The notes beneath the pieces were generated by a model that worked only from the letters and a program-made list of their open reading frames with translations, searched no databases and had not been told where the DNA came from. 64,000 nt of DNA from positions 1,756 through 65,755 of IMG/VR virus record IMGVR_UViG_3300033493_000001. One strand, 5' to 3'. Positions 18,002 to 38,529 of the stretch are shown piece after piece (within the stretch, counting starts at the first letter, position 1; the number at the start of each line of letters is the position of its first letter). Source of the DNA: a virus (taxonomy: Duplodnaviria; Caudoviricetes). Position numbers and translations under genes: made by a program.

Positions 18002-18403
18002 TCATGCGGTTTCCTCGTCTATCGCCCTCAGTTCTGCCAGTATTCGCTTCTTCCGCTTTCGGGCTTCATTGCTGCAACACCTGTTCATGACGCGATAGGT
18101 TCGCGCCCACGGCATGACGCTATAGCGGTACTCAACGACATCGCACACTCCGCGCACATTCCCTATGTCTCCCCTTATTCGCCTGATGGTCTCCAGACAT
18201 TCCCTTCTGTCGTGCATCAAGGTGCGTAGCGGGCGCAAGGCCGCGACAGGCGAAAACAAGAGCAGAACGACCGCAGCAATGAGGTTTCCAGTCCCGATGA
18301 ACACATGCAAAAGGCCCTCGTGCGCATAGTCGAACGCCCGTTGCATTTGCTCTCCGATTTGCCGAAGGACGGCGCTCGTCATTGTTTTGCGTTCGATGAT
18401 CAT
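18002..18403 (-). CDS. Hypothetical nin-region protein
   Basis: 133 aa ORF. Confidence 0.55.
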   Translation of the reverse strand: MIIERKTMTSAVLRQIGEQMQRAFDYAHEGLLHVFIGTGNLIAAVVLLLFSPVAALRPLRTLMHDRRECLETIRRIRGDIGNVRGVCDVVEYRYSVMPWARTYRVMNRCCSNEARKRKKRILAELRAIDEETA

Positions 18404-18450
18404 GCGCTCACTATCTCATGTCTCGTTGTAACTTGGATGCCTAGTTACTG

Positions 18451-18735
18451 TCATGCCTTCTTGTACGGCACCACGTTTCTCAGTTCTTTCGTGACGCCGC
18501 CGCTGTTTTTGAAATCAACCCACTGGTTGTAATGGGCGGCGCAGTAGTGCGTGTCCGGAGCAACCTAATAGGCGTGCTCGTCGCACAGCGGGCGGTCGCA
18601 GGTCTTGCCATCGCCAACCGGGTAGTCGCATAGGTATTCGCTAACCCAGTTGCACCCGGAAGCGTTACAGTGCGGTCCCAGTGGCCCACACATGAACATG
18701 TTTCCACCATCTATGTATTTTCTATAGCAAGGCAT
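18451..18735 (-). pseudogene. Cys/His-rich zinc-finger-like gene interrupted by an in-frame TAG
   Basis: MPCYRKYIDGGNMFMCGPLGPHCNASGC..LCDYPVGDGKTCDRPLCDEHAY*VAPDTHYCAAH..; TAG at 18565-18567. Confidence 0.7.
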
Positions 18736-18740
18736 AAAAA

Positions 18741-18968
18741 CTACCGTTGAGCAGTGTCGCCAAGTGCATGCTTCCGCAGTTGCTCAGACAACCAGAGCGC
18801 GTCTCGTCGGTCCATACGCGATGACCGAACCAGCAGCTCGCCATATCTGTCGTATCCGACTACAAGCACGTCTTGCAGGTTGTCGGTATTGGCAAACTCA
18901 AGCGCCGACAGTAACGCCTGTTGCGGAGTCATCGTCGTTGTGGCCGGAAACGCCAGTATGTTCTTCAT
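18741..18968 (-). CDS. Hypothetical protein
   Basis: 75 aa; MTPQQALLSALE..LQDVLVVGYD. Confidence 0.65.
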   Translation of the reverse strand: MKNILAFPATTTMTPQQALLSALEFANTDNLQDVLVVGYDRYGELLVRSSRMDRRDALWLSEQLRKHALGDTAQR

Positions 18969-18998
18969 GCGCTCACTGTCTCATGTAGGGGATGTGGG

Positions 18999-19034
18999 GT
19001 TAGGTGGTAGTAGTGCGTCTATCGCCTGTTCGGC
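18999..19034 (+). other. attI-like site (upstream GTTAG site plus simple site)
   Basis: GTTAGGT..GCGTCTAT-CGCCT-GTTCGGC; the two GTT are 29 bp apart. Confidence 0.6.
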
Positions 19035-19299
19035 GGCACAGGTTCATGCCTTTGGCGGCATTGATTCCGCGCTCCTGATTCTGCTTGCTCATCGTTTCGA
19101 GCAGAAGGCGACGGGCCTCATGCACTCGCTGGTCGGCTGTCTCCTCCATCCACAGCAACCCGTAAGCCACTTCAACCCGGCTCGGCTTTTCGCATGGAAT
19201 CGGCTGTTTCGGGCACGGCCCGCTGTACCCGTGGAACTTGAACATTTCCTCGCCAGCCGGCATCGGCTCACCGCAAATGGTGCATTTCGCTTCAGTCAT
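19000..19299 (-). CDS. Cassette-borne hypothetical protein (CxxC N-terminus)
   Basis: 99 aa, GGAG RBS, between an attI-like site and an attC-like site. Confidence 0.7.
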   Translation of the reverse strand: MTEAKCTICGEPMPAGEEMFKFHGYSGPCPKQPIPCEKPSRVEVAYGLLWMEETADQRVHEARRLLLETMSKQNQERGINAAKGMNLCRRTGDRRTTTT

Positions 19300-19319
19300 T
19301 TCGTTCTCCAGGGCAAAGC

Positions 19320-19401
19320 GCCCAACAATTTATTTCAGGCCGACGCCCGAAAGCGCCGCTGTTTCGTCATGCGCCATCAGCGGCGCGATTCGTTGTTGGC
19401 C
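19320..19401 (+). other. Decayed attC-like site
   Basis: GCCCAAC-AATTTAT-TT[C]AGGCCG[A]CGCC left arm; right arm GGCGCG..ATTCGTT-GTTGGCC lacks most of L'. Confidence 0.6.
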
Positions 19402-19754
19402 CCGTGGTGCAGGAAGTCGCCAGTTACCACCGCTCCGCATCTAAGGCATCTCCATAGGCTCCTCTTTCCGCCAAAGTGGTTGATTTCGTCGCCGTAGATG
19501 TTTCTGATAAATCTGCGTTCTGCATGTCTGCAAAAGAATCGTTTGAAGAATGCGCCCATATCACACCGCCCGCTCATCGAAACGAAACCCGCACTCATCG
19601 CTGTACGCCATTTTTTTGCACCATCCCTCGCCTCCGAGTAGCGGCGAGCGCCCGAGACAGGCGGTGCATTTCCGCTTTTTGCGCCACGTCCGCGATTCAT
19701 CGCTCATAATGATTTCAAGCGGGTCGCGGTATTTACTGGAGCGGAGGACGCGAT

Positions 19755-20312
19755 CTACCGGCATGTCACTCCGCGCTCTGTTTTCTCTCGGAATCCACAA
19801 TGATTTTGCATGACAATTTTGAATGATACCGGCTCGCCTGATGTCGTTCTCGGATATTTGCAGTCCGGATGGTCTTCATTGCAATCAGGCTCTACTGTAC
19901 ACCGTAGGCAACAATATTCAGGCGGTCCGGAGAATTCTCGTTTCCGCCCTTTCGCGCGCTTCGTATGCCTATCCGCCGAGAACACCCACTCCAGTTCATA
20001 CCCGCGACTTATCCTCGTTTGGATCGTGCTGACTGAAATGCCTAGTTTCTGCGACCACTCAGGAATCGTCAGGCGCTCACCGTTCCACTCGTACCGATTC
20101 GGGTTATATGCTGGCGTTTTCGCGGGCCAGGGTGTCGTGATTGCGCGATCCACACCCCATCGCTTCACCCGGTCCTCCAAAGTGCGACGCGGCATGCCGA
20201 GCCTGGCAGACCACGCCTTGACTGTCATCGTTTCGCTGCCGAATGTTATTGTTCGTTCGCCTGACATTACCGGATCCTCACATCGGGTCATCAAGTAGTT
20301 TCGTTTCACCAC
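19755..20312 (-). CDS. Protein with duplicated HTH-like repeats of the HNH/NUMOD-associated type
   Basis: ETMTVKAWSARLGMPRRTL and ERLTIPEWSQKLGISVSTIQTR. Confidence 0.55.
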   Translation of the reverse strand: MVKRNYLMTRCEDPVMSGERTITFGSETMTVKAWSARLGMPRRTLEDRVKRWGVDRAITTPWPAKTPAYNPNRYEWNGERLTIPEWSQKLGISVSTIQTRISRGYELEWVFSADRHTKRAKGRKREFSGPPEYCCLRCTVEPDCNEDHPDCKYPRTTSGEPVSFKIVMQNHCGFREKTERGVTCR

Positions 20313-20856
20313 AGGACAGAAGCTCTTTCCGCTTCGCCTTAAACTCCGCCTCTATGCGCCGGCAGTCATCTACCGTAAAGCGCGCCGATGGATGCGGACC
20401 CTCTAGCCATTCCACAGTCTCAATTCCTATTTTCGCTATCAGTCGCGGCCGGTATTCGGCAATGTTCCCGCTCTTATGTGCATTGCATGGGGCGCATTGC
20501 TTGTGCACGTTTTCCTCGACGTATCGAAGCTCGGGATGCGCCCCGACGCTCAGATAGTGCCCGGCGTGCCATTGCCCGTCATGCCAGCGCCCACAGGAGA
20601 TGCACGGCTCTGTTTTGTCGCGCTCTCGCACGTAGGCGTTCATTGCTGCCTGTGCTTTCGCCTTCCACCAGGACAACGGCTTGATTGCCAGCTTCCGCGC
20701 TTTCCTCGCCTTGCGATCTTCCTTCTCGCGCTTTTGCTGAACGATGCGGATGGCGCACTCCATTGTGGCCGCCACCTGAAATGAGCTGATAGGCGTGAGC
20801 CATTGTCCGCAACCGCATCTGCATTTGATTTTGCGTGGCTTGCGCTTGGCAATCAC
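20278..20856 (-). CDS. ninG: NinG/Rap recombination endonuclease
   Basis: CISCG..WHAGHY.SVGAHPELRY.E.N.HKQC..CN..KSGN. Confidence 0.92.
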   Translation of the reverse strand: MIAKRKPRKIKCRCGCGQWLTPISSFQVAATMECAIRIVQQKREKEDRKARKARKLAIKPLSWWKAKAQAAMNAYVRERDKTEPCISCGRWHDGQWHAGHYLSVGAHPELRYVEENVHKQCAPCNAHKSGNIAEYRPRLIAKIGIETVEWLEGPHPSARFTVDDCRRIEAEFKAKRKELLSCGETKLLDDPM

Positions 20857-21278
20857 CGTTTAGGCTCCGTCAGCTGTACACCAAGACCGCGGAAATACTG
20901 ATACACGGCGTCGAGATACCGCGCCTTTTGCTTCGTTGTCATCAGTCGCGTAACCGGAAAGTCGAACGGTTCTTGCATCAGAATAAGTTTCGTTTCGTAC
21001 GGCATCGGCTTTATCACCTTGTCGTACTTCTCGCGAAACTCATCATTCTCGTTTCGTAGAATGGGCACGCCAAGGTGGAGCTTGCAGTACCCGCGATATC
21101 CCTCGGCGGTTTCCTCGCCCAGCTGTTCCGCCGCTTCGATGACCCATTTGCGCTGTAGATTGTTCTGCTCCGGCGTTCGCTTCTTCGTAATGCTCACGGT
21201 AAATGGTGGCTTGCGAACGCCAATCAGGCGCGCCACGTCTTGTTTATCGTGATCGTTCCTGATGATGCGAGTTGTCAT
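20853..21278 (-). CDS. NinB-like recombination protein
   Basis: KKRTPEQN..W; nin-region position. Confidence 0.6.
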   Translation of the reverse strand: MTTRIIRNDHDKQDVARLIGVRKPPFTVSITKKRTPEQNNLQRKWVIEAAEQLGEETAEGYRGYCKLHLGVPILRNENDEFREKYDKVIKPMPYETKLILMQEPFDFPVTRLMTTKQKARYLDAVYQYFRGLGVQLTEPKR

Positions 21279-21508
21279 GCGCTCCTCGCCGCCGTGAGTG
21301 CCACCAGAATCACGTCCAGCTCCTCCCACCGAAAAGCTCCGGCCATGCGCAAAGGCAATTCAGCACCATTGCCGTGCACCATCAGGCTCATACCTTCGTG
21401 ATTACCCCATGTGGTCACTGTCACGTTTACACCGGATCCTTTCACGAACGTCTCAGTGGCCGGCGTCCTGAACGTACTAAGCGTTATTCCTCGTTCGTTC
21501 TCGCTCAC
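21275..21508 (-). CDS. Hypothetical protein
   Basis: 77 aa ORF. Confidence 0.6.
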   Translation of the reverse strand: MSENERGITLSTFRTPATETFVKGSGVNVTVTTWGNHEGMSLMVHGNGAELPLRMAGAFRWEELDVILVALTAARSA

Positions 21509-21524
21509 TGCGCATTCCTTCTAG

Positions 21525-21818
21525 TCATTTCGCCCACAGCCTCCGCGCCTTTTCCCATTCCGCTCGGTCGCAGTCCATACCGAGCGGTTTATGCTCTTTT
21601 CCGTCCGACCTCGCTTCATCGTCACGCCGGAATGCTTCCTCGATGTCGCGCTGGATAATCGTTTTCGCATTCGGTGCTAAATTTTCCCACTGGTCTATTA
21701 GCCAATCTACGCAGTCGCCGACAACATACGTTGCCCGGCCGAGACAATAGCGCACAGCGCACATGGCCATAAGATCGGAACGACCGAAGTTTTTATCGCT
21801 CACCGTTTCTCTCCTCAT
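21525..21818 (-). CDS. Hypothetical protein
   Basis: AVRYCLGRATYVV motif. Confidence 0.65.
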   Translation of the reverse strand: MRRETVSDKNFGRSDLMAMCAVRYCLGRATYVVGDCVDWLIDQWENLAPNAKTIIQRDIEEAFRRDDEARSDGKEHKPLGMDCDRAEWEKARRLWAK

Positions 21819-22206
21819 TTCCTGTCGCCTTCATGTCGCCAAACAGGAGCTCGTGATACGCATCCATCACAAGCCCCAATATCTCATACCATTTCTCCGG
21901 TTGGGCACCGTCGCTCGGCCCTCCAAATCGCCGCCGCATGAACTGTGCGGCAAGGCGAGCTACCTGCATCACGTCGTCGTGGTCGCTCACCATCTACTCC
22001 TTCGCAAACTCGGTTACGGTGACTGTGTTTCCTGTTATGCGCTGCCGCTGCGGCGCTTTTCCCATTCCGCCTGTACTGCCGCTTTCAACTCTGCGTCGAA
22101 CCGCGCGCCGTGCCTCTGTGCCATTCGCCCCATGATTTCTCGCCGCCGTGAAAGCGGTTTCGCTAGGAGCCAGCGGGCGAGACATTCGAGTTTGTGCTCG
22201 TGTGTG

Positions 22207-22839
22207 TCAGTTGGTATCGCCGTCATCAATGAATGGTGCGGCCCTGCTGGCATGCCGCTTTAGCGCCCACACAGCATCCTCTCGCGAGATGCCTAGACAT
22301 TGCCGGCCGTAGTAATAGACCGCTATTGATCTAATTAGCCCCTCCGACGTTTCCAGTAGCCATCTGGTTAATTCCGCTTCGTTGGCGGCCTCCGACCAGT
22401 CAATCTCAACGGTTCTCATGCATGAGCTTCCGGGGACTCTGTAGACCGTCCATCCAAGCTCCCGGAGTTCGGCGTCCCTCTCCATGTCCCTCTCTCGGTC
22501 ATGCCACTCTTTCCCATCGCATTCAACGGCAATGCGCCGATTTGGATCTGCGAAATCGAGAAAGTACCGGCCTACCGGGAATTGCGGCCACATGAACACC
22601 GCCGCATATCGCATATCGCCCCACACCGCTTTTTCGATAGGCGTAAACACCTTCATCCAGTCCACCGGGTACGGCGTCCATTCGTCGGTATTGAGGCGCG
22701 AATAGAAGCCCCTCAGCCCGTCAAACCTTTCCCAATCGTTCGTCGGGCGCTCTATCATCCGAATGAATTCACTCACGTTGGCTAGACGCCCCGGCTGCCA
22801 TCCGCTTTCGATGACTTCTCTTGCAGACATCACACTCAT
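22207..22839 (-). CDS. DUF559/Vsr-like PD-(D/E)xK endonuclease domain protein
   Basis: QFPVGRYFLDFA..IAVECDGKEWH..RD..RD..L..GW.VYR. Confidence 0.75.
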   Translation of the reverse strand: MSVMSAREVIESGWQPGRLANVSEFIRMIERPTNDWERFDGLRGFYSRLNTDEWTPYPVDWMKVFTPIEKAVWGDMRYAAVFMWPQFPVGRYFLDFADPNRRIAVECDGKEWHDRERDMERDAELRELGWTVYRVPGSSCMRTVEIDWSEAANEAELTRWLLETSEGLIRSIAVYYYGRQCLGISREDAVWALKRHASRAAPFIDDGDTN

Positions 22840-23597
22840 TTACCGTTCTCCCAGTTGGCCATCATCGCTCGGATCCGGATCTGCTGCTTCTTCTGCTCTT
22901 CCGCTTTACCGGCCTCCGAGGCGCTTTCCTGAAGCAACTTCTTCGCTTCCGCACCCTTTATGGCCTCGCGCACCCGCGCCATGCGCTCGTTGAATGCCTT
23001 GCTCTTGGTCTCCACAGTGGCGCCAGTCAGCAACCCGGCAATCGCGGCACCCTCTTGTGTCTGCGCTGGTGCTGGCAGGTGATGCTTTACGGCGTCATGC
23101 GTCAGGATTCCGGCTACCACAGCCTTTTCCAGGGCTCCGGCTCTCCGCTCTTTGTCGTGCCCGATCGACATCTCCCACCTGGCCGGTGCGGCGGCCGCGC
23201 GCGCATCCGAAACAAGTCGGTCATAGGCCGACTTAAACGCCATACGTGCGCCTACCTTGTCGCCAGACTGGAGCACGGAGCGCGCCGCAAAGAAGGCTTG
23301 CGCTGTCTCGCTGGTCCACACGACGGTTTCCGCCTCGTCATCAGCGAGGAGTGCGGTAGCCCATGCCTCGTCCGCTGTTGGCCGGCCATCGGCCGTCGCC
23401 AGGCGCTCCATCACTGCCGCCAGTGTGAACCGGCCAGTGACTTCGCGGCGCACCCGAGTGAGCGCGGCATCAATTTGCGGGAGCGGATATGCCGCCAAGT
23501 CCTGCGCCATAACCGCCAGCGCGGCCGGCCTGACTTCTGCCCCGCAAATCTCGGCAGTCGCGCTCAGCAGCTCAATGATGCGGCCTAGGTCGCTCAC
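22836..23597 (-). CDS. Replication protein (P-like helicase-loader position)
   Basis: Coupled directly downstream of the initiator; DGRPTADEAW motif. Confidence 0.65.
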   Translation of the reverse strand: MSDLGRIIELLSATAEICGAEVRPAALAVMAQDLAAYPLPQIDAALTRVRREVTGRFTLAAVMERLATADGRPTADEAWATALLADDEAETVVWTSETAQAFFAARSVLQSGDKVGARMAFKSAYDRLVSDARAAAAPARWEMSIGHDKERRAGALEKAVVAGILTHDAVKHHLPAPAQTQEGAAIAGLLTGATVETKSKAFNERMARVREAIKGAEAKKLLQESASEAGKAEEQKKQQIRIRAMMANWENGK

Positions 23598-24484
23598 ATC
23601 ACCCCCTTGCGGCGAAGAATCTCTTTGGCCTCTTCAGCGGCGCTGAAGTTGGATTGCGTGCCATCGAGTTGTTTTGCGCGAGTCGTGGTCATGCGTGTGT
23701 TAGTCGCCCATTCGGTGCGGAGTTTTTCGGCATCCGCCACCAGTGGCCCGAGGTCATGCATCTTGCCGACGTAGTAACTGCCGTTGTGCGTCAGGTAAAA
23801 CGCGGCCACCGGCTTCGCCTCTTCCCCTAGCCTTTGTGCAAGCTGCTTCACCATGGAGTTCACTTTCGCGTTTCGCACTGGCTCCACTTGGTAGCGGGCA
23901 CGGTAGGCGTCGGCGTAAGAGGCCCACAGGTCGCGACACAACTGCTTGAAGGCGGTTGTCGAATCACTTGATTCGTCGTCACGAGCCTTGGCGGGCGCGG
24001 TCGCCGATTCGGCGGACGCAACCCCAACGGTAGTTGGGTAATCAGGAATCAGGTTAAGGGAATCAGGAATCAGAGAATCAGAAGAGAGGGAATCAGCCCG
24101 AGCGCTTCCGATTTTTTCGGAACGGACCCCGGCGCTATCCGCGTTAGTATCCGCTTCTTTTGAAGGCGGTATCTCACTGGGTGTTTCATTCTTGTGCGGG
24201 TTTTGATGCTTTACAAAATTGTTGATCTCTATATACCGCTTACCGGCCACGGAATAGCGCCTGATGAATTCGTTCCCGCGCAGCCAGTCCAGCATGCTTT
24301 CCATGTTGAGCCCCTCGCGGTACGGAAACACCTCGGCCTTGATCCGTAAAGGACGATCCTCAAGACGGCCCTCTCGGTCGGCAAGCACCCACAACCCCTC
24401 GAACAGGAGGCTATAAAACGGGTCGGCCGTCCCAAGAATCTCGTTCTTGAAAAATCCCGGCTTGATGTTCCTTGCTCTCGCCAT
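23594..24484 (-). CDS. Replication initiator (O-like)
   Basis: MARARNIKPGFFKNE..LLFEGLWVLADREGRL..F.KHQ.PH. Confidence 0.85.
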   Translation of the reverse strand: MARARNIKPGFFKNEILGTADPFYSLLFEGLWVLADREGRLEDRPLRIKAEVFPYREGLNMESMLDWLRGNEFIRRYSVAGKRYIEINNFVKHQNPHKNETPSEIPPSKEADTNADSAGVRSEKIGSARADSLSSDSLIPDSLNLIPDYPTTVGVASAESATAPAKARDDESSDSTTAFKQLCRDLWASYADAYRARYQVEPVRNAKVNSMVKQLAQRLGEEAKPVAAFYLTHNGSYYVGKMHDLGPLVADAEKLRTEWATNTRMTTTRAKQLDGTQSNFSAAEEAKEILRRKGVM

Positions 24485-24639
24485 GATTCACTTCACCCGG
24501 TACGGCGGAGGCTTTGTTGCGCTATCCTTACCCTCACCACCGGCCTTCCTGCGCTCAATCTCCTCCCTGGCGAGTCGTGCGGCCTCCCTGAGCGATTTTC
24601 CGTCCTCGACGTGACGGGCGATGATGTCGGCGATGGTCA

Positions 24640-25269
24640 TTATTCTTTGCCCTTCTCTTTGTTCACCGTATCGGCAATCATGAGGAGCAGATCGCGAAAC
24701 TCCGATGGCGTAGCGTTTCTGATTCTCGTTTTGTCTTTCCCGCCAACCATTGCCATCATTCCGATTCTGCGGGCTTTCTCGTAGCCGTAACGTTTTAGGG
24801 CGACCGGGTGAATGCGCTGGCCTGACGTACCCCAGCGCAGTTCTGGCAGGCTCGCGCCAACCGCGTAAAGCCAGGTCGCTTTCCTGCTCATGTGGCCGTA
24901 GTGCCCCTGTTCGACATGGCAAGTCCAGCCTCCGAAATCGTCGGCCTTCGCCCACCCACCCGCCTTCGGCGGCGGCGTGATGCCGAAGAATCGCCAAGCG
25001 TTGGAGTGCGCCGGGTGTTCCAGCACCCCCCCGTAATTCCGTACCGCGGTCAGCGCCGCAGCAAAGCATCCGCCATCCTCCCCGAGCCGGTACCGATTCG
25101 GCTTGTTAGGTGCGCCATGCCAATACCGTCCCCACCGTTGGCATGGAGGGTGAGCCACTACCGGGTGAGGGCCGGCGTATTTCCTGGCGTCTCGCGTTTC
25201 GTCCCACGGATCTACCTCGGGAATTCCGAAGTAAGCTCCACCAGTTTCGACAAACAGTGCTGCAATCAC
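24640..25269 (-). CDS. Putative DNA cytosine methyltransferase-like protein
   Basis: IAALFV..Y..D..RDAR.Y.GP.PVVAHPPCQRW (catalytic PPC) and VLEHP; GTG start 25269. Confidence 0.65.
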   Translation of the reverse strand: MIAALFVETGGAYFGIPEVDPWDETRDARKYAGPHPVVAHPPCQRWGRYWHGAPNKPNRYRLGEDGGCFAAALTAVRNYGGVLEHPAHSNAWRFFGITPPPKAGGWAKADDFGGWTCHVEQGHYGHMSRKATWLYAVGASLPELRWGTSGQRIHPVALKRYGYEKARRIGMMAMVGGKDKTRIRNATPSEFRDLLLMIADTVNKEKGKE

Positions 25270-27692: not shown

Positions 27693-27704
27693 GATCCATC
27701 CTCG

Positions 27705-27944: not shown

Positions 27945-27979
27945 GTTAGGCCGCGGGAGCCGTTGATGTGGTGTTAGGT
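27945..27979 (+). other. attI-like site
   Basis: GTTAGGC..CCGTTGAT-GTGGT-GTTAGGT; the two GTT are 28 bp apart. Confidence 0.6.
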
Positions 27980-28276
27980 TGCTTTCCTCTCGTAATTTCG
28001 CCCAGCATCAAAAGCCTGCTGAACAATGGATTCGAGCAGCTCGTTGAACATCGAATCGGCTAATGGGTTGTACGTTTCGGAATGGCTTTTTGATGCCAGT
28101 TCGCACGCAAGCGTTCGAATTTGCATAACCTGATTTCCTTCCGGTACGCACTTCACTTTTACTTCTACTCGCATCACCGCCTCCGTTTAACTCGCAACCT
28201 AACAACTACTTGAGCCCGACGCCTCAGACTTCACCGCTTCTTTCCCGCAGCATCTTGGCGCGGGCTAAGAGAGCCG
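27974..28276 (+). mobile_element. Putative integron-type gene cassette (303 bp) carrying antisense ORF 27974-28177
   Basis: Starts at G/TTAGGT; its attC R'' ACCTAAC is the exact complement. Confidence 0.7.
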
Positions 28277-28282
28277 TTAGGC
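28197..28282 (+). other. attC site (86 bp)
   Basis: ACCTAAC-AACTAC-TT[G]AGCCCG[A]CGCC...GGCG-CGGGCT-AA-GAGAGCC-GTTAGGC; canonical spacings and two extrahelical bases. Confidence 0.8.
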
Positions 28283-28283
28283 A

Positions 28284-28532
28284 CTACGGTTCGCACGCAA
28301 TGCAGCGCACGCCTTTAACCTCTTCGTCCGGGTCGAGCCTGTGCTCCAAGCAAAGGTTTCTTGCCACCGTGCTTCCGGTGCCGAATGTGTCCATTACAGC
28401 CACCCATCGCGGGGAGTTTCCGTAGCGTCTCGGCCGCGCGTTCCGCATGGCTCGGCACACCAGTTCTTCCGCAGAATAGGTGGGCGCACTGGCGTTCTTG
28501 ATTTGCGGGTCGGTTGCGGTTTTCGTGCTCAT
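28284..28532 (-). CDS. Hypothetical protein
   Basis: MSTKTATDPQ..; stop abuts the attC R' box. Confidence 0.6.
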   Translation of the reverse strand: MSTKTATDPQIKNASAPTYSAEELVCRAMRNARPRRYGNSPRWVAVMDTFGTGSTVARNLCLEHRLDPDEEVKGVRCIACEP

Positions 28533-29672: not shown

Positions 29673-29885
29673 TTACTGCGTGCGGGTGCGGCGCTTGGGT
29701 TTGGGGTGTGATGCTTTGCCGCAAGCAGAAAGCTTGTCGAGCCGTACCGCCGCGCCGGTCACGAGGTCGGCTTGGTCCTGCGTTAGGTCTTTTGGCCACT
29801 GCGAGATGGCGCTCCGTGTCCTGCCGATTGCGCGCGCTAGGGCGGCTCCGGACCCGAAAAGTTTGATCGCTTGCTGTTTCGTCAT
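29673..29885 (-). CDS. cro: Cro repressor
   Basis: MTKQQAIKLFGSGAALARAIGRTRSAISQWP; divergent from cI. Confidence 0.88.
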   Translation of the reverse strand: MTKQQAIKLFGSGAALARAIGRTRSAISQWPKDLTQDQADLVTGAAVRLDKLSACGKASHPKPKRRTRTQ

Positions 29886-29891
29886 GCCTAT

Positions 29892-29958
29892 ATGTTTAAC
29901 ACGCTGAACATTGACGGTCAAGCCCATGCAACATCAAAATGTTTAGAGTTATAGACAT
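29892..29958. promoter_or_regulatory. OR operators and PR promoter
   Basis: 20-bp imperfect palindromes ATGTTTA-N6-TGAACAT (29892-29911) and ATGTTTA-N6-TAGACAT (29939-29958); TTGACC-17-TAAACA on - strand. Confidence 0.8.
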
Positions 29959-30613
29959 GAGCACATTAGCCGAGCGCGTGGCCGAGGCATTGGCGGACGC
30001 GGGAATCAAGCCGATTGAACTAGCAAGGATGGCCGGGGTCGGCCGGGCCACCGTTTCCCTATGGATGAGTGGACATACCAAAAAATTAGAGGGGCCCAAC
30101 CTGACCAAGGCATCTAGGGCTCTCGGTGTCGATCCTCACTGGCTCGCAACAGGGGAAGGACGAAAAAGACCGCTGTCTGGGGGCAATGTTGAGCCAGGCC
30201 CGGACATTCGCGGCCAGGTCCCACTTATCTCATGGGTACAAGCGGGGAAGTGGTGCGGTATTGTGGATACGTTCCACCCTTGTGACGGGGAGAAAATGAT
30301 TTTCTCAACAAAAAAAGTCGGTCCGCATGCATTCGCTCTACGGGTCAAGGGGGATTCGATGGAAAGCCCGGCAGGACGGCCGACCTATCCAGAAGGATCG
30401 ATTATCATCGTAGATCCAGGCGTTGATGCGGTTCATGGGAGCCGCGTGATCGTCCGCCTGGATAGATCAGACGAAGCCACGTTCAAGCAACTTGTTGTCG
30501 ATGGTGGAAAGCGTTATTTGAAGCCACTGAATCCGCGCTATCCCATCCTCGAAATGACAGATGACGCGGTGGTCTGCGGTGTTGTCGTTCAAACAATCAT
30601 TGACGAGGACTAG
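29957..30613 (+). CDS. cI: CI repressor (HTH plus S24 autoprotease)
   Basis: HTH then VPLISWVQAG, FALRVKGDSM, ATFKQL. Confidence 0.95.
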   Translation: MSTLAERVAEALADAGIKPIELARMAGVGRATVSLWMSGHTKKLEGPNLTKASRALGVDPHWLATGEGRKRPLSGGNVEPGPDIRGQVPLISWVQAGKWCGIVDTFHPCDGEKMIFSTKKVGPHAFALRVKGDSMESPAGRPTYPEGSIIIVDPGVDAVHGSRVIVRLDRSDEATFKQLVVDGGKRYLKPLNPRYPILEMTDDAVVCGVVVQTIIDED

Positions 30614-30616
30614 AGT

Positions 30617-31110: not shown

Positions 31111-31131
31111 GCCCTACCACGGGAACATCCC

Positions 31132-31166
31132 ATCCCGCCCCGGCCCCGTCGGGCGGGATTTTTTTT
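31132..31166 (+). terminator. Terminator of the cI operon
   Basis: ATCCCGCCC..GGGCGGGAT followed by T tract. Confidence 0.85.
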
Positions 31167-31173
31167 GCCTGAA

Positions 31174-31221
31174 ATGTTTAGCGCGCTTGACATTGCTGGC
31201 AGTGTTTAGTAAGTTGAACAC
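31174..31221 (+). promoter_or_regulatory. OL operators and PL promoter
   Basis: ATGTTTA-N6-TTGACAT (31174-31193), GTGTTTA-N6-TGAACAC (31202-31221); TTGACA-17-TAAGTT. Confidence 0.85.
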
Positions 31222-31374
31222 CATCACGCACCGCACCACCGCCAGCAACGCCGCGCAGGGCCGAGCGACTGGCCGAGAGGTTGACCCACCTGGTAACGCG
31301 GACTGAGGGCTTTCCGCATAGCGGGGCCGGAAGTGGGCGAGAGAGCAGAGCGCGAATGAGCGGAGGGAGTTGAG

Positions 31375-33180
31375 ATGTCGAACATGAGTTATTGCCGATT
31401 CGAAAACACGCTGCGCGCCCTTCGCGATTGCTATGAGCACATGGACGACAAGGTTGGCGAGCGAGAGGCGCGGTATCGCTATCAGTTGATCGACTTGTGC
31501 CGAGCCATCGAAGCGGACTACGCGCACGAAATCGACCCGCAGAGTAACGAAGGCGCTGGCTCATAGGGTGAGTAGGAGCGGATAGGAGAGAGAGGAAATA
31601 ACGATGGTTCTGAACCCTAACGATGCGCCGGCCGGATTCGTTGCGGTATCGAGGTTCGACTTCGACGACGAGTGTAAAGCCTGTGCGTTTTACGATTATC
31701 CAGAAAGCGGCAATTTCATTGCTTGTCGCGACAAGTCTGGAAACAGGTGCAGCCCATCGTGTCGAGACGATAAGCATTTCGTCGTTTTCGTGAAGAGTTA
31801 GAGGATAGGAAGATGGCCGAGTTCGAGATTAACGCCAACGAAGCAACCATTAAGCCGACGTTTTCGCATAGACACGTTCGCCTCCAGTTCAGTGCAGACG
31901 TGAGCGATGTGGTTAGCCTTCTCACGTTAGAGCAGATCGTCGCCAACGTAGATGTTGATGGCCTGCTTGCCGTTATCGGCGAAGACCGTGCCGATGCTTA
32001 CTTCGGTCTGGTGCAGCCGGAATAAGAGAACGACATGACCACAAAGCGATTCACGAAAGAGAAGTTGCTCCTGGACCTGGTACGCATGCGCGACAGTCGC
32101 GGCTTGCAGCACGGGTTCATCGCTGGCAACGGTTGGGCGCAGGTGAAAGGAAAGGGCGAAGAGCTGAACCGCGAATACGGCGAGTGGGATTTTATCCGCG
32201 ACCTGATTTCGATGATTGATTCTGGCGACATCGGCCGCTGAATGCGGACGGGAGATAGGCGATGAAGGTTTGGATTTCGAAGTTGGCGCTGACGAAGGGC
32301 ATCTACGAAGCGGAAGTCGCTGTATCTGAATCTGGATATGTGTCAGAGACCAGTACCTGGGGTTTCGGCGGAAGACTCGGCCGTGACGCCCATGAAACAC
32401 GCGAAGCCGCCGTAGCCGCTGCTGAGCAGATGCGACTGAAGAAAATCGCATCGCTCAAGAAGCAGTTGACGAAGCTCGAAGCGATGAAGTTTTGATAGAG
32501 GAATGCTCTAAATGAAAACAACCGACGAAATCGAAGTGGTGCTCAGCAGGCTTCCCGCCGAAGGAACGCGCTTCAGCGGGATGACGTACGAAGAGGGGAT
32601 TGAGGAGGCGCTTCGCTGGGTGCTCGGCGAGCTTGATGACGAAGATGCGCCGTACTTCGGCACCGATTAACCATAACAACACCCCCTCGGCGCCCTCCCC
32701 GCCGACCTGAGCCGACACAGGACAAACGGCCGAACCATCTCAGGTCGAGATGGCCTCGGAAAGCAGCGAGATTCCTCCGGGCATGACGTTGTGGCTCCCG
32801 GCGCTGCTTCCCAAGGGCTCGATGATGTTGCGGCGTGGAAAGCAGACACGCAGGCGAATGCCCACTGGCGCACCGGATAGGGCAATAGTTGGTTGGTGGC
32901 AAGGGCTTTCGAATTCCCTGAGCAGCCCGCTAACTGATTGGAGATAGGACATGGCAACACCTAACCGTCCACGTTATACCGCCGAGAGGGCTCTATGGTT
33001 CCGAGAACACGGCGCGCAGAACTGGGAGGCGTGGTCATTGGAATTCTATCGCTACTATGGGCGCGGGTGGATTCGTACAGCGGAAGATATCGAGCGGGCT
33101 AAGGCGTTCATCGCGAGTAAGAGCGACAAACCGCTTTCTGAAATCGCTCCTTACCTGCTTTGCGGGCACGCACAATGAAA
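31375..33180 (+). CDS. Run of small early-left hypothetical genes (31375-31566, 31604-31801, 31813-32025, 32035-32241, 32262-32495, 32951-33178)
   Basis: Tightly spaced + strand ORFs with RBSs downstream of PL. Confidence 0.6.
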
Positions 33181-33435
33181 CACGTCGCGCTCAGTCTCGC
33201 TGTCCTTGCTCTGTGGGCGATGGCTGGCGAATGGGAATATCAGGAGCAGGCGGAAACGGTGGAGGTTGCAGCGTATGAGTGACGATATTCGAGAGCCAAC
33301 TGAGCGCCTAGCCGTTGAGTTACTAGCAGAAGTTTTTAAGGCATCTCGCGGCGAATGGGAAAAATGGCTTAGTAAGCGCGGCGCCGAATGGGACAAGAAA
33401 GCCGAGGAATTCCTCCGCGATAATGGAGTTGACCT

Positions 33436-34558
33436 ATGAACGCCCTCGACGCCTTCAACATCACCCGTCCTCTCTGCGCGCAACCGTGCTCTATCGTCGA
33501 GTGCCGACCGGACTATGAAATGGCCGAGCGCGCCATCTGCGACGCAATTACCGCTCGCTGGCCTGCACCGCTGGAGCGCGTCGGAATCGCCATCGGCACC
33601 GGCAAAGCGGAATTCGAGCGCTCACGAGACCTGCGACTCGCGATTGGTGCGGCGCGTCGCGTAATGCTGGAGGTGAATTAATGAACGCCCGCCCCCACTG
33701 CCACATATCCGCGCAATGCCTCGCATGGGCGGAGACGCAGGGAAATATGGATGAGCTGGACGCATGCCGTGATCAGCTTGTCCGGCAGGAATTCGGCCGC
33801 GTCATGGAGAAGGACCGCGCAGACATCGTGCTCCGTGCGCTCGAATCCATCACGCCGGACACGCAAGACAGGATTGCGCTGATATCCGAGTCGGACGATT
33901 TGGTGGAGCTAGGCCGAATTCTGAATCTGCACATCGACCGCATGAAATGGCAAGTGGCCGGTGAGCGCGTTGATGCGAGAAAGGGAGGGTCGAAACTGTG
34001 AGCGACTGGATTGAATGGCACGGCGGAGAAAGGCCGGTGGATGGTGATGTGATTGTTGAGTACCGCATGTGGAGCGGCGTATGGAGTGCTGCTCATGCTC
34101 GCGATTTGTACTGGGATCATCACCAATTATTAGGCGACATCGTCGCGTATCGCGTAGTTGGCGCTAGTCCGCCCAAACAACATGATGATATGGCGGAATT
34201 ACGCGACGCCCTCGCGCTTATCAAGGAGCTTAGGGATGCGTCGATGCAAACCATGCTTCTCGCCCGCCTGAGGTTCGGCAATCTGGACGATATTGCTAAC
34301 GCGGCATTTGATGCACACGGAACGGCAATCGACAAAGCCGACGCCTTCCTGAAAGAGCAAGAGCAACAACCTGGTGAGCCAGTGAAGCACGGGTGCCATG
34401 TAGATGTGTTGCTCGGCGGCGAGATGTACCACACCTGCGAGATGGACGGTGACGGACAAGCATCGTGCGCGACAGCGGAACACCTGACCCGCAAAGAGGA
34501 TTGTCCGTACTGGAAGCCTATCGATGCGGCGGATCAATCAAAGTTAACAGGAGAATAA
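33436..34558 (+). CDS. Three coupled hypothetical genes (33436-33681, 33681-34001, 33998-34558)
   Basis: Overlapping stop/start junctions. Confidence 0.6.
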
Positions 34559-34560
34559 CC

Positions 34561-35322
34561 ATGGGTGACATTGCTCCAATTAGACCGGCCGGACAGGCAT
34601 TTTCACTGACTCCGCAAACTCTTGATGAGGCCATGAAGTACGCGGACTTGATCGCGAAAAGTGAAATCGTGCCGAATGATTATAGAAACAAACCGGCAAA
34701 TGTGTTGGTAGCGATCCAGATGGGCCTCGAACTTGGGTTGCCGCCGCTCCAGGCGCTTCAGAATATTGCGGTTGTCAACGGTCGGCCCGCTGTATGGGGG
34801 GATTCATTGATGGCGATTGCGCGCGCTCACCCGGCGTGCGAATACATTACAGAGACCATGGACGAGAGCACTATGAAGGCGACCTGCAAAGCCAAACGCA
34901 AGGGCCAGCCGGAAGAGGTTCGCACGTTCAGCCAGAAGGATGCTGAGCTGGCCGGGCTGTGGGGCCGCAACACCTGGAAACAGTACCCTAAACGCATGCT
35001 CCAGATGCGGGCTCGCGGGTTTGCTATCCGCGACGTGTTCCCCGACGCCCTGCGCGGCATCGCCCTGGCCGAAGAAGTGCAGGATATGAGTCCGCGCGAC
35101 ATGGGATCGGTTCAGCGTGTCGATGAGCCCGCAAGCTCTCCATCCTTGGCGGGATATCCGGCCGGAAAGTTCGCCGAGAAACTGCCGGCATGGGCCGAAC
35201 AGATTGAGAGCGGCGCGCGCACGGCGGACGACATCATCGCCACCATCGGCAGCCGCTACTCCATGACAGACGACCAGAAGCAGCAGCTTCGCAACGTGCA
35301 GCCAACCGGAGGCGCCCAATGA
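34561..35322 (+). CDS. RecT-like single-strand annealing recombinase
   Basis: S.IVP.DY.NKPANVLVAIQMG.ELGLPP.QAL.NI.VVNGRP..WGD..KQYPKRML..RA. Confidence 0.85.
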   Translation: MGDIAPIRPAGQAFSLTPQTLDEAMKYADLIAKSEIVPNDYRNKPANVLVAIQMGLELGLPPLQALQNIAVVNGRPAVWGDSLMAIARAHPACEYITETMDESTMKATCKAKRKGQPEEVRTFSQKDAELAGLWGRNTWKQYPKRMLQMRARGFAIRDVFPDALRGIALAEEVQDMSPRDMGSVQRVDEPASSPSLAGYPAGKFAEKLPAWAEQIESGARTADDIIATIGSRYSMTDDQKQQLRNVQPTGGAQ

Positions 35323-37040
35323 AGATTCACCCCGTACAGCCCGGAAGTGACGCATGGCGTGCGCTCCGTTCGCGCATCCGCCGCACCGCCAGCGTGGCCC
35401 CAATCATGATGAGCGTGTCCAAGAAGATGCGCCGCTCCGACCTGGTGCGCATGGTCGCCACCGGAGACGAGCAGGAATTTTCGCGTTTCGTGCAGGAGGT
35501 ACTTTTCGAAAAGGGTCATGCCGCCGAGACCGCTGCCCGCCCCTTTATTGAGGCGGAAGTCATCGGCAACGACTTGTATCCCATTACCGCCACTGACGAT
35601 GCTGAATATATCCTCGTGTCCGCCGACGGCATCACCGAGGACTACCGGCACGGCTGGGAATGCAAGCTGTGGAATGAGGAAAAGGCCGGCCAGGTTCGCA
35701 ACGACATAGTGCCGGAAGAAGACCGTTGGCAGGTTGTGCAGGCGCTGGTTATTACATGCGCCGAAGACTGGACCTATACCGTTACCGACGGCACCACGGA
35801 GAAGACCGTATCTACCGTCTACCGACTCCAGGATAGCGACGAAAAGGCCCTCATGGCTGGCTGGCGCCAGTTCGATGACGATGTTGCCGCCTACGTCCAC
35901 GTGGAGCATGTCCCCACCCCTGAAGGAAGAGCCCCGGAAACGCTCCCCGCGCTACGCATTGAAGTCACTGGCATGGTCACCGCCTCAAACCTGGCCGAGT
36001 TCAAGGAAACGGCTCTTGCGGTCTTTAAAGGCATTAACCGCGACCTGAAGACCGACGAGGACTTCGCCAACGCCGCGAAAACAGTGAAGTGGTGCGAGGG
36101 CGTAGAGGATCGCCTTGGCGCAGCCAAGCAGAACGCCTTAGGGCAGACCAAGAGCATTGACGAGCTCTTCCGCACGATTGACGCCATCTCGGAGGAGGCC
36201 CGCGCCACGCGCTTGGAACTGAACCGGCTGGTGGAGTCGCGCAAGACCGCTGTCCGTGCAGAAATCCTACAGAAGGCGCAGGCCGATCTTGCCGCGTATC
36301 AGGCCAGTGTGAACGACTCCCTTGCTCGCGTTCGCCTGCTCGCCTATCAAGCCGACTTCGCAGGTGCCATGAAGGGCAAGAAATCGGTCGTCACCCTTCA
36401 AGATGCGGCGGATACCACGTTGGCCACGGCGAAGATCGCCATCAGCGCCGCCGCCGATGAGGTCCGCCGGAATCTGAAGACGCTGGACGAATGGGCTGGC
36501 GAACACATATTCCTGTTCTCCGACCTGCAAACCATCGTCACAAAGCCGGCTGACGACTTCACCGCGCTGGTGAAGATGCGCATTGCGGATCACAAGGAAG
36601 CCGAGGCCAAGCGCCTTGAAGCAGAGCAGGCCCGCATCCGCGCCGAGGAAGAACGCAAGGAAAACGAGTGCATCGAGCAGGAGCGCCGGCGCATCCGTGA
36701 GGAGGAGCGGCAGAAGGCCCAACAGGAGGTTGTGCGCATCAATCCGGGTTTCGTTGAGCGCCCGGAGACCGTAACCCATGGTATCGCTGTTCCGCACCAC
36801 ACGGTCAGCGCCGCATTCGATACCCCTGATACCGGCGCCACCATGAAGCTCGGCACGATATGTGCGCTCCTTGGCTTCACAGTCACCGCCGACTTCCTGG
36901 CCACCATCGGGTTCTCCGCCGTCGGAACCGAGCGCGCCGCGAAGCTGTACCGCCGGGCCGACTTCGGCCGCATCTGCCAGGCCATCGCCAGTCACGTGGC
37001 GGCTGTCGCTGAGATGGAAGCGCAGAAGGGGGCGGCATGA
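35319..37040 (+). CDS. YqaJ/lambda-exonuclease family protein with coiled-coil C-terminus
   Basis: W..LR..TAS..GH..E..AR..SADG..WECK..QV. Confidence 0.85.
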   Translation: MKIHPVQPGSDAWRALRSRIRRTASVAPIMMSVSKKMRRSDLVRMVATGDEQEFSRFVQEVLFEKGHAAETAARPFIEAEVIGNDLYPITATDDAEYILVSADGITEDYRHGWECKLWNEEKAGQVRNDIVPEEDRWQVVQALVITCAEDWTYTVTDGTTEKTVSTVYRLQDSDEKALMAGWRQFDDDVAAYVHVEHVPTPEGRAPETLPALRIEVTGMVTASNLAEFKETALAVFKGINRDLKTDEDFANAAKTVKWCEGVEDRLGAAKQNALGQTKSIDELFRTIDAISEEARATRLELNRLVESRKTAVRAEILQKAQADLAAYQASVNDSLARVRLLAYQADFAGAMKGKKSVVTLQDAADTTLATAKIAISAAADEVRRNLKTLDEWAGEHIFLFSDLQTIVTKPADDFTALVKMRIADHKEAEAKRLEAEQARIRAEEERKENECIEQERRRIREEERQKAQQEVVRINPGFVERPETVTHGIAVPHHTVSAAFDTPDTGATMKLGTICALLGFTVTADFLATIGFSAVGTERAAKLYRRADFGRICQAIASHVAAVAEMEAQKGAA

Positions 37041-37197
37041 GAAACCCATACATCCTATTCCGAGGGAAATTGATTTCCCATGACGAGCTTGTTGCTCTGC
37101 AAAAGCGGGCGCTTGTGAGATTGGTGGTGTCCGTAATTTTCGTTCTTTTCTGTTTCGCATGGCTCGCCTATTCGGTGATAGCGGAGGCATGACCGCC

Positions 37198-37386
37198 ATG
37201 CAAATCCTAACCGCACAAATTGGCGACCGCCTCGTCATCGGTGATGTGACGATAGCGGTTCTCGAAAAGAGGGCGCGCGGCATCAAGTGCGGAATCGACG
37301 CGCCGAAGGATGTCCCGGTGCATCGCAAAGAAGTGCGCGACCGGATCAGGGTTGACCAACAAACAACGCCAGCGCCCGGTAAATAG
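37198..37386 (+). CDS. csrA: CsrA/RsmA-like RNA-binding regulator
   Basis: GDRLVIGDVTIAVL..IKCGIDAPKDVPVHRKEV. Confidence 0.85.
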   Translation: MQILTAQIGDRLVIGDVTIAVLEKRARGIKCGIDAPKDVPVHRKEVRDRIRVDQQTTPAPGK

Positions 37387-37403
37387 GGCGCGAAAGGTTT
37401 GAT

Positions 37404-37673
37404 ATGAACAAGCTTATTCTACTCGCCTTCCTCCCCCTCTCCGCGCACGCCCTGGACGTCACCGACTGCCAACGAATCGCAGAACGGCAATCAATCGCCC
37501 CGGTAACGGTCATCGACGGCGAGCCGATAGCCGGATATGACGCAATTGTCGGGCGCATCGCGGGACGTATCAACGGGCAGACGGAGACGCGGTTTTATCT
37601 CTGCACGAACGAGCGTATCCGCGTCGGTACGATGGCGCAGATTGCGGGATTGGTGGCGAGGATTGAGGAATAG
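37404..37673 (+). CDS. Hypothetical protein with signal peptide
   Basis: MNKLILLAFLPLSAHA. Confidence 0.65.
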   Translation: MNKLILLAFLPLSAHALDVTDCQRIAERQSIAPVTVIDGEPIAGYDAIVGRIAGRINGQTETRFYLCTNERIRVGTMAQIAGLVARIEE

Positions 37674-37869
37674 ACGGAGGCTCACAATGCAAACAGTAGA
37701 CGCAAAAGCACGAGTGATTTGCCACAAGCTCGGCATACCGGATGACGGCACAGGATTCAACATCATCAAGCTGGCCCTCAAGGAGCAGGATCGCGATACT
37801 CGCCACGCCTGCGCGGAGGCGGTGATCAACGCAGCCGATCCACATGCCGCGTGCATGAACGCCAGATCC

Positions 37870-37995
37870 GTATAACGCTACGCTTGAGGCGCACGCCGAG
37901 AACGAAACCGCTGAAAGGGATGAAGATGAGCGGAACCAATGAACGTGAAGAAACCACAGCGGTAGGCGTGTCGCCACTCCAAGCGGTTGTTAGCG
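37870..37995 (-). other. attC site (126 bp), top strand on -
   Basis: On +: GTATAAC-GCTACGC-TTGAGGCGCACGCC...GGCGTG[T]CGCCACTC[C]AA-GCGGTT-GTTAGCG; canonical 7/6 spacings. Confidence 0.7.
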
Positions 37996-38132
37996 CAGTG
38001 CAATGCGATAGATGCGGATCGACTATTAGTTTGTTGATCTGCACCTTGTCTGATCGCGGCGACATCCTGTGCCTGGACTGCGCGGACCCGGTTGGTAGGC
38101 GCGCTCCGTTGTTTTCGCGCGCTAATAGGTGA
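37920..38132 (+). CDS. Cassette-borne small protein with two CxxC motifs
   Basis: Starts inside the attC loop; CDRC..CLDC; stop lies in the attI-like site. Confidence 0.6.
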   Translation: MKMSGTNEREETTAVGVSPLQAVVSAVQCDRCGSTISLLICTLSDRGDILCLDCADPVGRRAPLFSRANR

Positions 38133-38167
38133 TAGACGGACGAGTTCCGACTAACTCCACATTACGG
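38120..38167 (-). other. attI-like site
   Basis: - strand CCGTAAT-GTGGA-GTTAGTC..CCGTCTAT-CACCT-ATTAGCG; closely matches 18990-19034. Confidence 0.6.
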
Positions 38168-38529
38168 ACAACGATTTGGGTGCGCGCAGGACACAGATAA
38201 ATGACCGAGCCATGGATTTATACAGTTTCGAAGCTTACGGCGATGACCGAGCGAGCAGAACGCGCAGAGCGAGAACTCGCCGAAGCAAAAAGCCGCATCG
38301 CGCAGCTGGAAACGGCGTGCGAGCTGAAGGACGCGGTGATTGCGAGGATGGAAGCGAAATCGCAGGAGGAAGTGAAATGAATTGGCCAGAAGCATTTGCG
38401 ATGGTTGGTGTTGCGTTCGCGGTGGCGTGGTGGCTTCGCTCATAATGAACCAGGAGGAAGTGAAGTGATCAACGAACGCGAAATGCTGGCGCTTGCGGCG
38501 AGAGCGGCCGAAATTGGGAGACAAATTAA

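Follow-up and report, generated by a model that had tools for sequence, protein, structure and literature searches.

The DNA studied here is a 64-kb window (the whole stretch that was analysed) of IMGVR_UViG_3300033493_000001, a temperate lambda-like phage whose whole record covers 65.7 kb. In this phage, divergent genes for a Cro-like regulator (29673-29927, minus strand) and a CI-like regulator (29939-30613, plus strand) at 29673-30613 mark two divergent early operons and fix their directions. Single attC sites have been found placed in both of these operons, in agreement with a preliminary description of this DNA. The three units concerned lie at 18992-19401 (unit 1), 27945-28282 (unit 2) and 37870-38167 (unit 3), and each combines an attC or its remnant with one small gene and a left-hand flank. 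The phage also encodes a tyrosine integrase (41055-42032, plus strand; phrog_1 integrase), which is not an integron integrase. With 31 bits against a cut-off of 265, it is the best match to TIGR02249 in the 65.7-kb record, so that the earlier statement that IntI is absent stands, and no intI remnants were found beside the three units. A search for close relatives of the phage, including one with an empty site, found none.

Three attC units in the early operons

The attC sites were scored with R1, a home-made covariance model built from 25 attC sites adjoining true intI genes together with aadA1, whose alignment is 91% paired and shows strong covariation. Held-out real attCs scored 22-60 bits on R1, and no match was obtained in 48 kb and 30 kb of unrelated control DNA. 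The strand call of R1 is trusted because it was right for aadA1 and because, of 84 chromosomal attCs, 48 have an ORF ending at R'' on the top strand only, as against 8 that are inverted-only. When the whole 64-kb window was scanned on both strands with filters off, the only R1 matches with E<1 were those of units 2 and 3. The preliminary description had taken all three hairpins to be genuine integron-type attC sites that a covariance scan of both strands should recover; with R1, which is not the model of IntegronFinder, this was borne out for units 2 and 3 and failed for unit 1. An Rfam scan returned tRNA and int-alpA matches only, Rfam being without an attC family. Half-site HMMs (nhmmer) proved powerless, and a left-arm pattern search of genomes and viral contigs gave counts at chance level, with two real attC arrays (L003 and L007) among its 8 matches (6 genome, 2 viral).

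In unit 2, the attC (28197-28282, plus strand) is intact and canonical, and matches R1 over its full length with 39.5 bits (E 5.4e-7); the minus strand has no R1 match. The site reads ACCTAAC-AACTA-CTT[G]AGCCCG[A]CGCC ... GGCG-CGGGCT-AAG-AGAGCC-GTTAGGC, where R'' is ACCTAAC and R' is GTTAGGC, with an extrahelical G and A on the 5' arm of the plus strand, and its minus strand folds at -22.1 kcal/mol (z -3.4). The cargo ORF of 67 aa (27974-28177, minus strand) has a GGAGG ribosome-binding site and a TAA stop inside GTTAGGT; it is an ORFan, without a relative in a set of 5.8 billion proteins, and has no match in Pfam or PHROG. Directly upstream of the attC lies a phage gene of the phrog_15161 family (28284-28532, minus strand), whose stop is 1 nt from R'. 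The boxes at the cassette ends are complementary at 7/7 positions in unit 2 (GTTAGGT/ACCTAAC) and at 6/7 in both unit 3 (ATTAGCG/CGCTAAC) and unit 1 (GTTCGGC/GCCCAAC), as had been described. Since the unit 2 site is fully intact and its end boxes are perfectly matched, the evidence suggests that this attC is recently or still functional, and it looks recombination-competent.

In unit 3, the attC (37870-37995, minus strand) matches R1 on the minus strand only, in a full-length alignment of moderate significance (23.1 bits, E 0.0042), with R'' CGCTAAC, R' GTTATAC and a variable loop of 66 nt. The upstream phage ORF (37537-37875, plus strand) has its TAA stop within the R' box (GTATAAC). The cargo ORF of about 68 aa (37926-38132, plus strand), which has a CxxC...CxxC pattern, begins within the loop of the attC and extends 6 nt past the ATT junction, and no match to it was found in PHROG and no relatives on viral contigs. 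The junction itself, A|TT, departs from the G|TT or GWT consensus. This attC, too, is probably recombination-competent.

In unit 1, a relic attC is present at 19320-19401 (plus strand), where R1 gives 5.7 bits and aligns the R boxes alone. The R''-L'' arm has been kept (GCCCAAC AATTT ATTTCAGGCCGACGCC), and the L'-R' arm has been lost into the 3' end of the upstream gene at 19377-19700, leaving core boxes R''/R' of GCCCAAC/GTTGGCC and no L' partner. The kept R''-L'' arm aligns with intact attCs that stand in the equivalent position upstream of homologous genes on two other contigs (L093 and L078). The cargo ORF of 99 aa (19000-19299, minus strand) encodes a zinc-ribbon domain at its N-terminus (CTICGEPMPAGEEMFKFHGYSGPCP), and GenBank phages contain no match to this gene. 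Judged by its sequence, unit 1 is a half-decayed attC, a fixed relic. The core boxes of all three units fit the attC forms R'' RYYYAAC and R' GTTRRRY; units 2 and 3, unlike unit 1, also have the L''/L' stem, in which extrahelical bases in the '' arm and unpaired spacers of 5-7 nt confer strand polarity.

Cassette polarity in this phage and on other contigs

In none of the three units is the ORF sense to the attC top strand, as it would be in a canonical cassette. The antisense arrangement noticed in the preliminary description is defined by R1 in units 2 and 3, and the ORF of unit 1 likewise lies on the bottom strand. It was also confirmed that attC polarity tracks transcription across both early operons, so that expression of the cargo would have to come from the phage side, a Pc-like promoter being unable to provide it.

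Relatives of the unit 1 gene are present on 23 IMG/VR contigs, many of them with flanking attCs on the opposite strand, and all attC matches near these relatives (25/25) are on the strand opposite the gene. Homologues of the phrog_15161 gene upstream of unit 2 occur inside attC arrays on metagenome contigs, and one phage contig (L059; dUTPase, tail chaperone) carries relatives of this gene among attC arrays. The attC arrays of the relatives on viral or metagenome contigs are mostly of inverted polarity. Within the viral set and the window together, 27 of 40 attCs are inverted-only and 0 are canonical-only, in contigs that were reached via homologues of the phage's own genes and are therefore not an unbiased sample. 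Assignment of the coding strand by GC3 failed on control arrays and was dropped, and assignment by longest open frame was ambiguous in GC-rich viral arrays. Members of the phrog_15161-like family occur in both polarities relative to attC, and attCs are lacking in those Pseudomonas syringae phages that carry distant homologues of phrog_15161.

Another example of this polarity is seen in G403, a viral genome of 47 kb (CheckV 100% complete) whose array is bordered on its attI side by a true IntI (426 bits). In this genome, plus-strand ORFs tile between the attCs and the cassette ORFs run toward attI/intI, and the polarity of the attCs relative to intI is canonical; its ORFs on either strand have no Pfam match. 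A second viral genome, G404, has an intI remnant at the place that matches the IntI of G403, and G407, a complete phage with terminal repeats, carries two dispersed attCs on opposite strands.

Left-hand motifs and alternative explanations

The 12-mer ATGTGGNGTTAG, here termed motif A, is present in exactly 3 copies with 0 mismatches, at 18992 (plus), 27966 (plus) and 38151 (minus), one per unit, against an expectation of about 0.03 copies, and no additional copies appear when 1 mismatch is allowed. In unit 2, motif A is at the proposed junction, where the left side (27945-27979, plus strand) consists of GTTAGGC (27945-27951), a 21-nt gap and then GATGTGGTG|TTAGGT (motif A, 27966-27977). The single architecture proposed earlier for all units holds for an attC-gene unit with a left flank but is not strictly uniform, because in units 1 and 3 motif A lies 29 nt outside the junction. 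Units 1 and 3 also have in common a 39-nt site, S, located at 18992-19030 (plus strand; ATGTGGGGTTAG-N12-CGTCTATCGCCTGTT) and 38124-38162 (minus strand; ATGTGGAGTTAG-N12-CGTCTATCACCTATT), which ends at the proposed cassette junction, and CGTCTATCRCCTRTT is found in these two units only. In each of these units, the 6 nt after RTT complement the R'' box of that unit (TTAGCG/CGCTAA in unit 3).

One explanation for these motifs is that S and motif A are phage-borne, multi-copy docking sites of attI type, where cassettes would be captured and swapped time and again by an IntI provided in trans. This would fit the confinement of motif A to the three units, the presence in each unit of two GTT-type boxes 28-29 nt apart, and the likeness of the two S copies, which are identical at 31 of 45 positions although they lie on opposite strands and 19 kb apart, and whose similarity stops exactly at RTT; in addition, S takes the topological position that attI has in G403. 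However, S gave no signal against the attI regions of 18 sampled integrons, and S and the unit flanks showed weak local matches, and nothing more, to the attI regions of G403 and G404. In IMG/VR, the S pattern had a single chance match, inside a coding region, and S was not found in related loci. For motif A, moreover, the docking explanation would mean a role as the crossover in unit 2 and as an upstream element in the other two units. An attI adjoins intI and combines direct repeats with L/R boxes that bind IntI; no intI lies beside the phage units. The docking explanation is unlikely, and the preliminary view of the left-hand motifs as functional attI-like sites was not upheld, as they do not resemble the 18 attI regions, do not score as attC halves and were not found in other viral contigs.

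It is quite unlikely that the units are passive relics, that is, fragments of attC arrays from a phage-borne or host integron that arrived through phage mosaicism (illegitimate or homologous recombination) and are decaying with no integrase acting, S and motif A being leftover array sequence. The missing arm of unit 1, the overlap of the unit 3 ORF with its attC, the singleton state of all units and the longer arrays in which the same gene families are found elsewhere would all be expected in such a case. A 13-mer beside unit 2 (GTTAGGCCGCGGG) also nearly equals the first-cassette junction of G403 (GTTACGCCGCGGG), and the unit 2 flank matches the 5' end of the intI remnant of L078 with a local score of 35, where the null maximum was 33-34 in 3000 trials. 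Against this explanation stand the intact attC and perfect end boxes of unit 2, as well as the placing of the attCs, which lie exactly in the gap that separates a stop codon from the following ribosome-binding site and leave genes undisrupted; in addition, S gave no match when it was tested as a truncated attC half. Highly improbable is the idea that the hairpins are RNA or DNA structural elements retained for a phage function (such as processing or stabilising mRNA, or pausing in the stretches between early genes) with a convergent or co-opted likeness to attC. This would account for a polarity that never varies relative to transcription, either in the units or in other viral arrays, and would suit the better folding of the transcribed strand and the strictly intergenic position. 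The hairpins, however, agree in detail with integron attCs in their R boxes, in the length of their spacers and in where the bulges lie, G403 has such an array adjoining a true IntI, and there is no U-tract for termination.

Interpretation and comparison with known integron systems

The explanation that we favour, with a probability of about 0.6, is that the units are single, SALIN-like integron cassettes of inverted, phage-type polarity, which are read through from phage early promoters. It builds on the observed attC identity, the polarity, the absence of IntI and the recurrence of these gene families within attC arrays on other contigs. Followed along transcription, each cassette begins with the attC in bottom-strand sense and continues with a ribosome-binding site and the ORF, whose stop lies at or close to the xTAA|C junction, an inverted order in which the attC would travel with the gene downstream of it. 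Expression of the cargo would come about only by read-through from a PR-like or PL-like phage promoter. The cassettes most likely came in, and may still leave, through recombination for which an IntI would be provided in trans, either by the host or by an integron on a co-infecting phage. The partners would be the folded bottom strand of the attC and a secondary GTT site that directly follows the stop codon of a phage gene. We infer IntI-mediated insertion and present-day mobility; the conserved 12-nt and 39-nt left flanks are not expected under random secondary-site insertion.

The phage record is not a complete integron, which would have intI with an adjacent attI and Pc, nor a CALIN of at least two attCs clustered within a few kb without intI, its attCs being separated by about 9-10 kb that include phage core genes. 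Units 2 and 3 each have a single attC plus a CDS with no other att site or intI nearby, as in a SALIN. A wider and fairly unlikely proposal is that phages hold a distinct inverted-polarity class of integron, with flipped cargo and attCs canonical relative to attI/intI, of which the lambdoid phage studied here would represent a dispersed variant without an integrase, its three S/motif A copies serving as attI-like docking points at which an IntI in trans could swap early accessory genes. With flipped cargo, transcription of such an array would start at a phage promoter on the far end and run toward attI and on into intI, and the non-template strand would be the bottom strand, which is the recombinogenic one.

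Integrons are known mainly as bacterial gene-stockpiling devices. Because other uncultured phages share the flip, phages may swap early genes with integron machinery. If phages keep cassettes in a polarity that can be read from phage promoters alone, phage and bacterial cassette pools would be linked by recombination yet incompatible in expression, and transcription could expose the recombinogenic strand and thereby couple shuffling to infection. A defined site-specific route of exchange would then also be open to the small ORFan genes in the early operons of lambdoid phages, many of which act in anti-defence or host takeover. The two polarities in the phrog_15161-like family bear on how cassettes first form.

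The earlier remark that attC arrays are not recognised in phages is outdated. Clustered attCs (at least two required) have been described in 21 cultured phages, temperate as well as virulent and usually without IntI, and phage attCs have been recombined with attI1 by IntI1 (Qi et al., 2023; PMC9892861). Single attCs, GWT secondary-site insertions and SALINs have likewise been documented (Loot et al., published 2024; bioRxiv 10.1101/2022.09.11.507474). Thus, attC sites in phages and SALINs are already known, and the junction motif and the inverted polarity are the new parts. Like the units of this phage, a SALIN is an isolated attC with one CDS, without intI or attI nearby, with a GTT-type junction and with expression from a neighbouring promoter; the phage differs in having three copies in both early operons and cargo antisense to the attC top strand. 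The attG sites of the SALIN work share only GWT and weak motifs, whereas the left flank of the phage units is conserved between units. Qi et al. (2023) describe no single attCs scattered through the early operons of lambdoid phages, no consistently inverted polarity of the genes and no conserved junction motif.

The aadA1 cassette of In2/Tn21 has the same R''-L''...L'-R' arrangement with extrahelical bases as unit 2, which differs from the left arm of the aadA1 attC (site verified in R100) at only a few positions. The ORF of a canonical cassette has the sense of the attC top strand, stands ahead of its attC and depends on Pc at the attI side for transcription, whereas in the phage units it is antisense, follows the attC in transcription and would have to be driven from the far side. 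In the reverse integrons of Treponema and Spirochaetes, intI and the cassette genes are likewise oriented to each other in a non-canonical way, with intI upstream of the array and co-oriented with it. G403 differs from these in that its cassette ORFs point toward attI/intI, with an attC polarity that is canonical with respect to intI.

Phage genome and its attC sites

The parent record spans 65,755 nt at about 57% GC, the window being its bases 1756-65755, and none of the GenBank phages compared with it at the DNA level is close. The preliminary description had placed three mini-integrons in two divergent early operons of a lambdoid phage. The operons were correctly called, because a CI-like repressor (29939-30613, +) and a Cro-like gene (29673-29927, -) face each other; downstream of them, the minus strand carries a replication initiator (23594-24484) and NinB (20853-21329), and the plus strand RecT-like and RecE-like genes (34465-37040) together with a phage integrase (41055-42032). 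Within the initiator gene, a 38-46-nt stretch (24036-24081) shows ~97% identity to unrelated phages of Pseudomonas, Escherichia and Vibrio, with no DNA similarity to those phages outside it. The late portion of the PR-side operon carries an 85-nt direct repeat (16436-16520 and 17318-17402; 98% identical, 882 nt apart), a tRNA-Met lies at 15439-15513 (-), and an Rfam int-alpA RNA motif scores 53.6 bits, above its gathering score, among apparent phage late genes (8684-8751, -).

The attC sites were assessed with a home-made covariance model, R1. Integron integrases were located by the TIGR02249 cut-off, which 148 of 401 sampled genomes exceeded (a tally that counts four unpublished genomes used nowhere else), and the array side was taken from 20 of the intI-positive genomes. 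R1 was trained on 25 short attCs from those arrays plus that of aadA1, whose sequence matches plasmid R100 exactly; the R/L structure drawn by hand is 91% paired in the alignment, with strong covariation. Applied to those arrays, the model picks up dozens of held-out attCs (22-60 bits), every one on the strand running away from intI, and gives no match in 48 kb of unrelated loci or 30 kb of Pseudomonas phage DNA.

A check with the IntegronFinder model on both strands had been proposed; run with R1 instead, filters off, it returned three matches in the window: the unit 2 attC (28197-28282, +; 39.5 bits, E 5.4e-7), the unit 3 attC (37995-37870, -; 23.1 bits, E 0.0042) and a noise match at 47111 (E 3.8). 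The remainder of the record adds no attC by R1. The claim of three attC units thus holds for units 2 and 3 and in part for unit 1 (19320-19401), which reaches only 5.7 bits, with the R boxes alone aligning on whichever strand. Its L'-R' arm falls within the 3' end of a gene at 19377-19700, and its R''-L'' arm aligns with intact attCs that are placed likewise, immediately ahead of homologous genes, on other viral contigs; the best reading of unit 1 is a half-decayed relic attC. The integron interpretation of the units is right in kind.

Cargo polarity in the window and in other arrays

The cargo gene had been described as antisense to the attC top strand, and this is borne out in units 2 and 3, where R1 scores a single strand and the neighbouring genes lie on the opposite one. 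Along transcription, a phage gene stop (within R' in unit 3, and for unit 2 at 1 nt from it) is followed by the attC in bottom-strand sense, then by a ribosome-binding site that reads GGAGG in unit 2 and GGAGA in unit 1, and then by the ORF with its stop, which in units 1 and 2 sits at the xTAA|C box.

Polarity was scored from ORFs of at least 50 aa: those ending by R'' on the top strand counted as canonical, and those ending by R' on the bottom strand as inverted. Among 84 attCs in chromosomal arrays adjoining intI, 48 were canonical only and 8 inverted only, whereas among 40 attCs of the viral set plus the window, a sample not unbiased in that its contigs were found via homologues of the window phage's own genes, 27 were inverted only and none canonical only. 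The strand calls depend on R1, as validated on aadA1, the 84 chromosomal attCs and the geometry relative to IntI in two viral contigs, G403 and G404. G403 (IMGVR_UViG_3300048839_000431) is a 47-kb viral genome, 100% complete by CheckV, with a complete integron of at least seven attCs (locus L090, coordinates 12-4807). Its true IntI (426 bits) is positioned exactly at the attI end of the array, with the crossover 12 nt ahead of its start codon; as they do in every integron, the attC top strands point away from intI, and plus-strand ORFs, on the same strand as intI, are tiled between the attCs and directed toward it. G404 retains a remnant of intI at the corresponding place. Dispersed attCs on opposite strands, as in the window phage, are found in a further complete phage genome (G407, contig of L080; 37,384 nt with direct terminal repeats), which has two single sites at record positions 5168-5252 (+) and 17282-17344 (-).

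Unit 2 carries an ORFan as cargo. The unit 1 cargo comes from a family, present on 23 IMG/VR contigs, whose N-terminal zinc ribbon is conserved and whose C-terminal parts vary; each of the 25 attCs that R1 finds near its members has the family gene on its opposite strand. For the phrog_15161-family gene immediately upstream of unit 2, 34 relatives turned up in metagenomes, many within attC arrays. This small CxxC family is cassette-borne in both polarities, inverted in L046, L048, L051 and L059 (a phage contig carrying dUTPase and a tail chaperone) versus canonical in L052, L058 and L060/62/63, which bears on cassette origin. Another viral contig (L003, IMGVR_UViG_3300022208_000025) carries a 4-5-attC array without IntI at 832-1887, with short ORFs opposite the attC top strand.

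Junction motif and candidate recipient site

The 12-mer ATGTGGNGTTAG (motif A) has three exact copies in the window, at 18992 (+), 27966 (+) and 38151 (-), against ~0.03 expected; allowing one mismatch adds no copies. Each copy lies 150-320 nt from its own unit's attC, on the strand that is the top strand of that attC. In units 1 and 3 a longer, 39-nt site recurs, S (ATGTGGRGTTAG-N12-CGTCTATCRCCTRTT), and the similarity between the two ends exactly at RTT. The six bases that follow complement the unit's own R'' box in unit 3 (TTAGCG/CGCTAA) and read TTCGGC against GCCCAA in unit 1, while in unit 2 GTTAGGT within motif A itself matches R'' ACCTAAC 7/7. There are thus two candidate crossover positions, used non-uniformly, and the single architecture claimed for the units is not strictly uniform.

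One possible reading of S is a recipient site, preferred or attI-like; another is a remnant of lost neighbouring array sequence. S fails to score as half of an attC, shows no resemblance to attI regions from 18 integrons, and was not found in IMG/VR or the related loci. Two weak leads point toward the remnant: the first-cassette junction of G403 is nearly identical to GTTAGGCCGCGGG at 27945, and the 5' end of the intI remnant that L078 retains aligns with the unit 2 flank at a local score of 35 (null maximum 33-34 in 3000 trials). That the left motifs act as an attI-like docking site, and that the cassettes are mobile at present, we offer as hypotheses. At 38080-38154 (+), in a reading frame shifted by +1 from that of the unit 3 ORF, the S site of unit 3 would encode IGDRRTSSD*, ending at the motif A TAA. 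The unit 1 ORF has a parallel tail, TGDRRTTTT*; the likeness may come from a frameshift, or from a conserved DNA site that happens to be coding.

Relation to known integron elements

Phage integrons, clustered attCs without intI (CALINs) and recombination-competent attCs have already been reported (Qi et al. 2023, PMC9892861), where single dispersed sites and gene polarity are not treated. Single attCs without integrase (SALINs) have been described together with IntI-catalysed insertion at GWT secondary sites and expression that depends on neighbouring promoters (Loot et al., bioRxiv 10.1101/2022.09.11.507474), and a literature search for inverted-polarity arrays in phages found no paper. The window elements belong to known kinds, phage-borne attCs and SALINs; what looks new is the conserved junction motif and the inverted cargo polarity, which recurs in other viral arrays, one of them equipped with an IntI.
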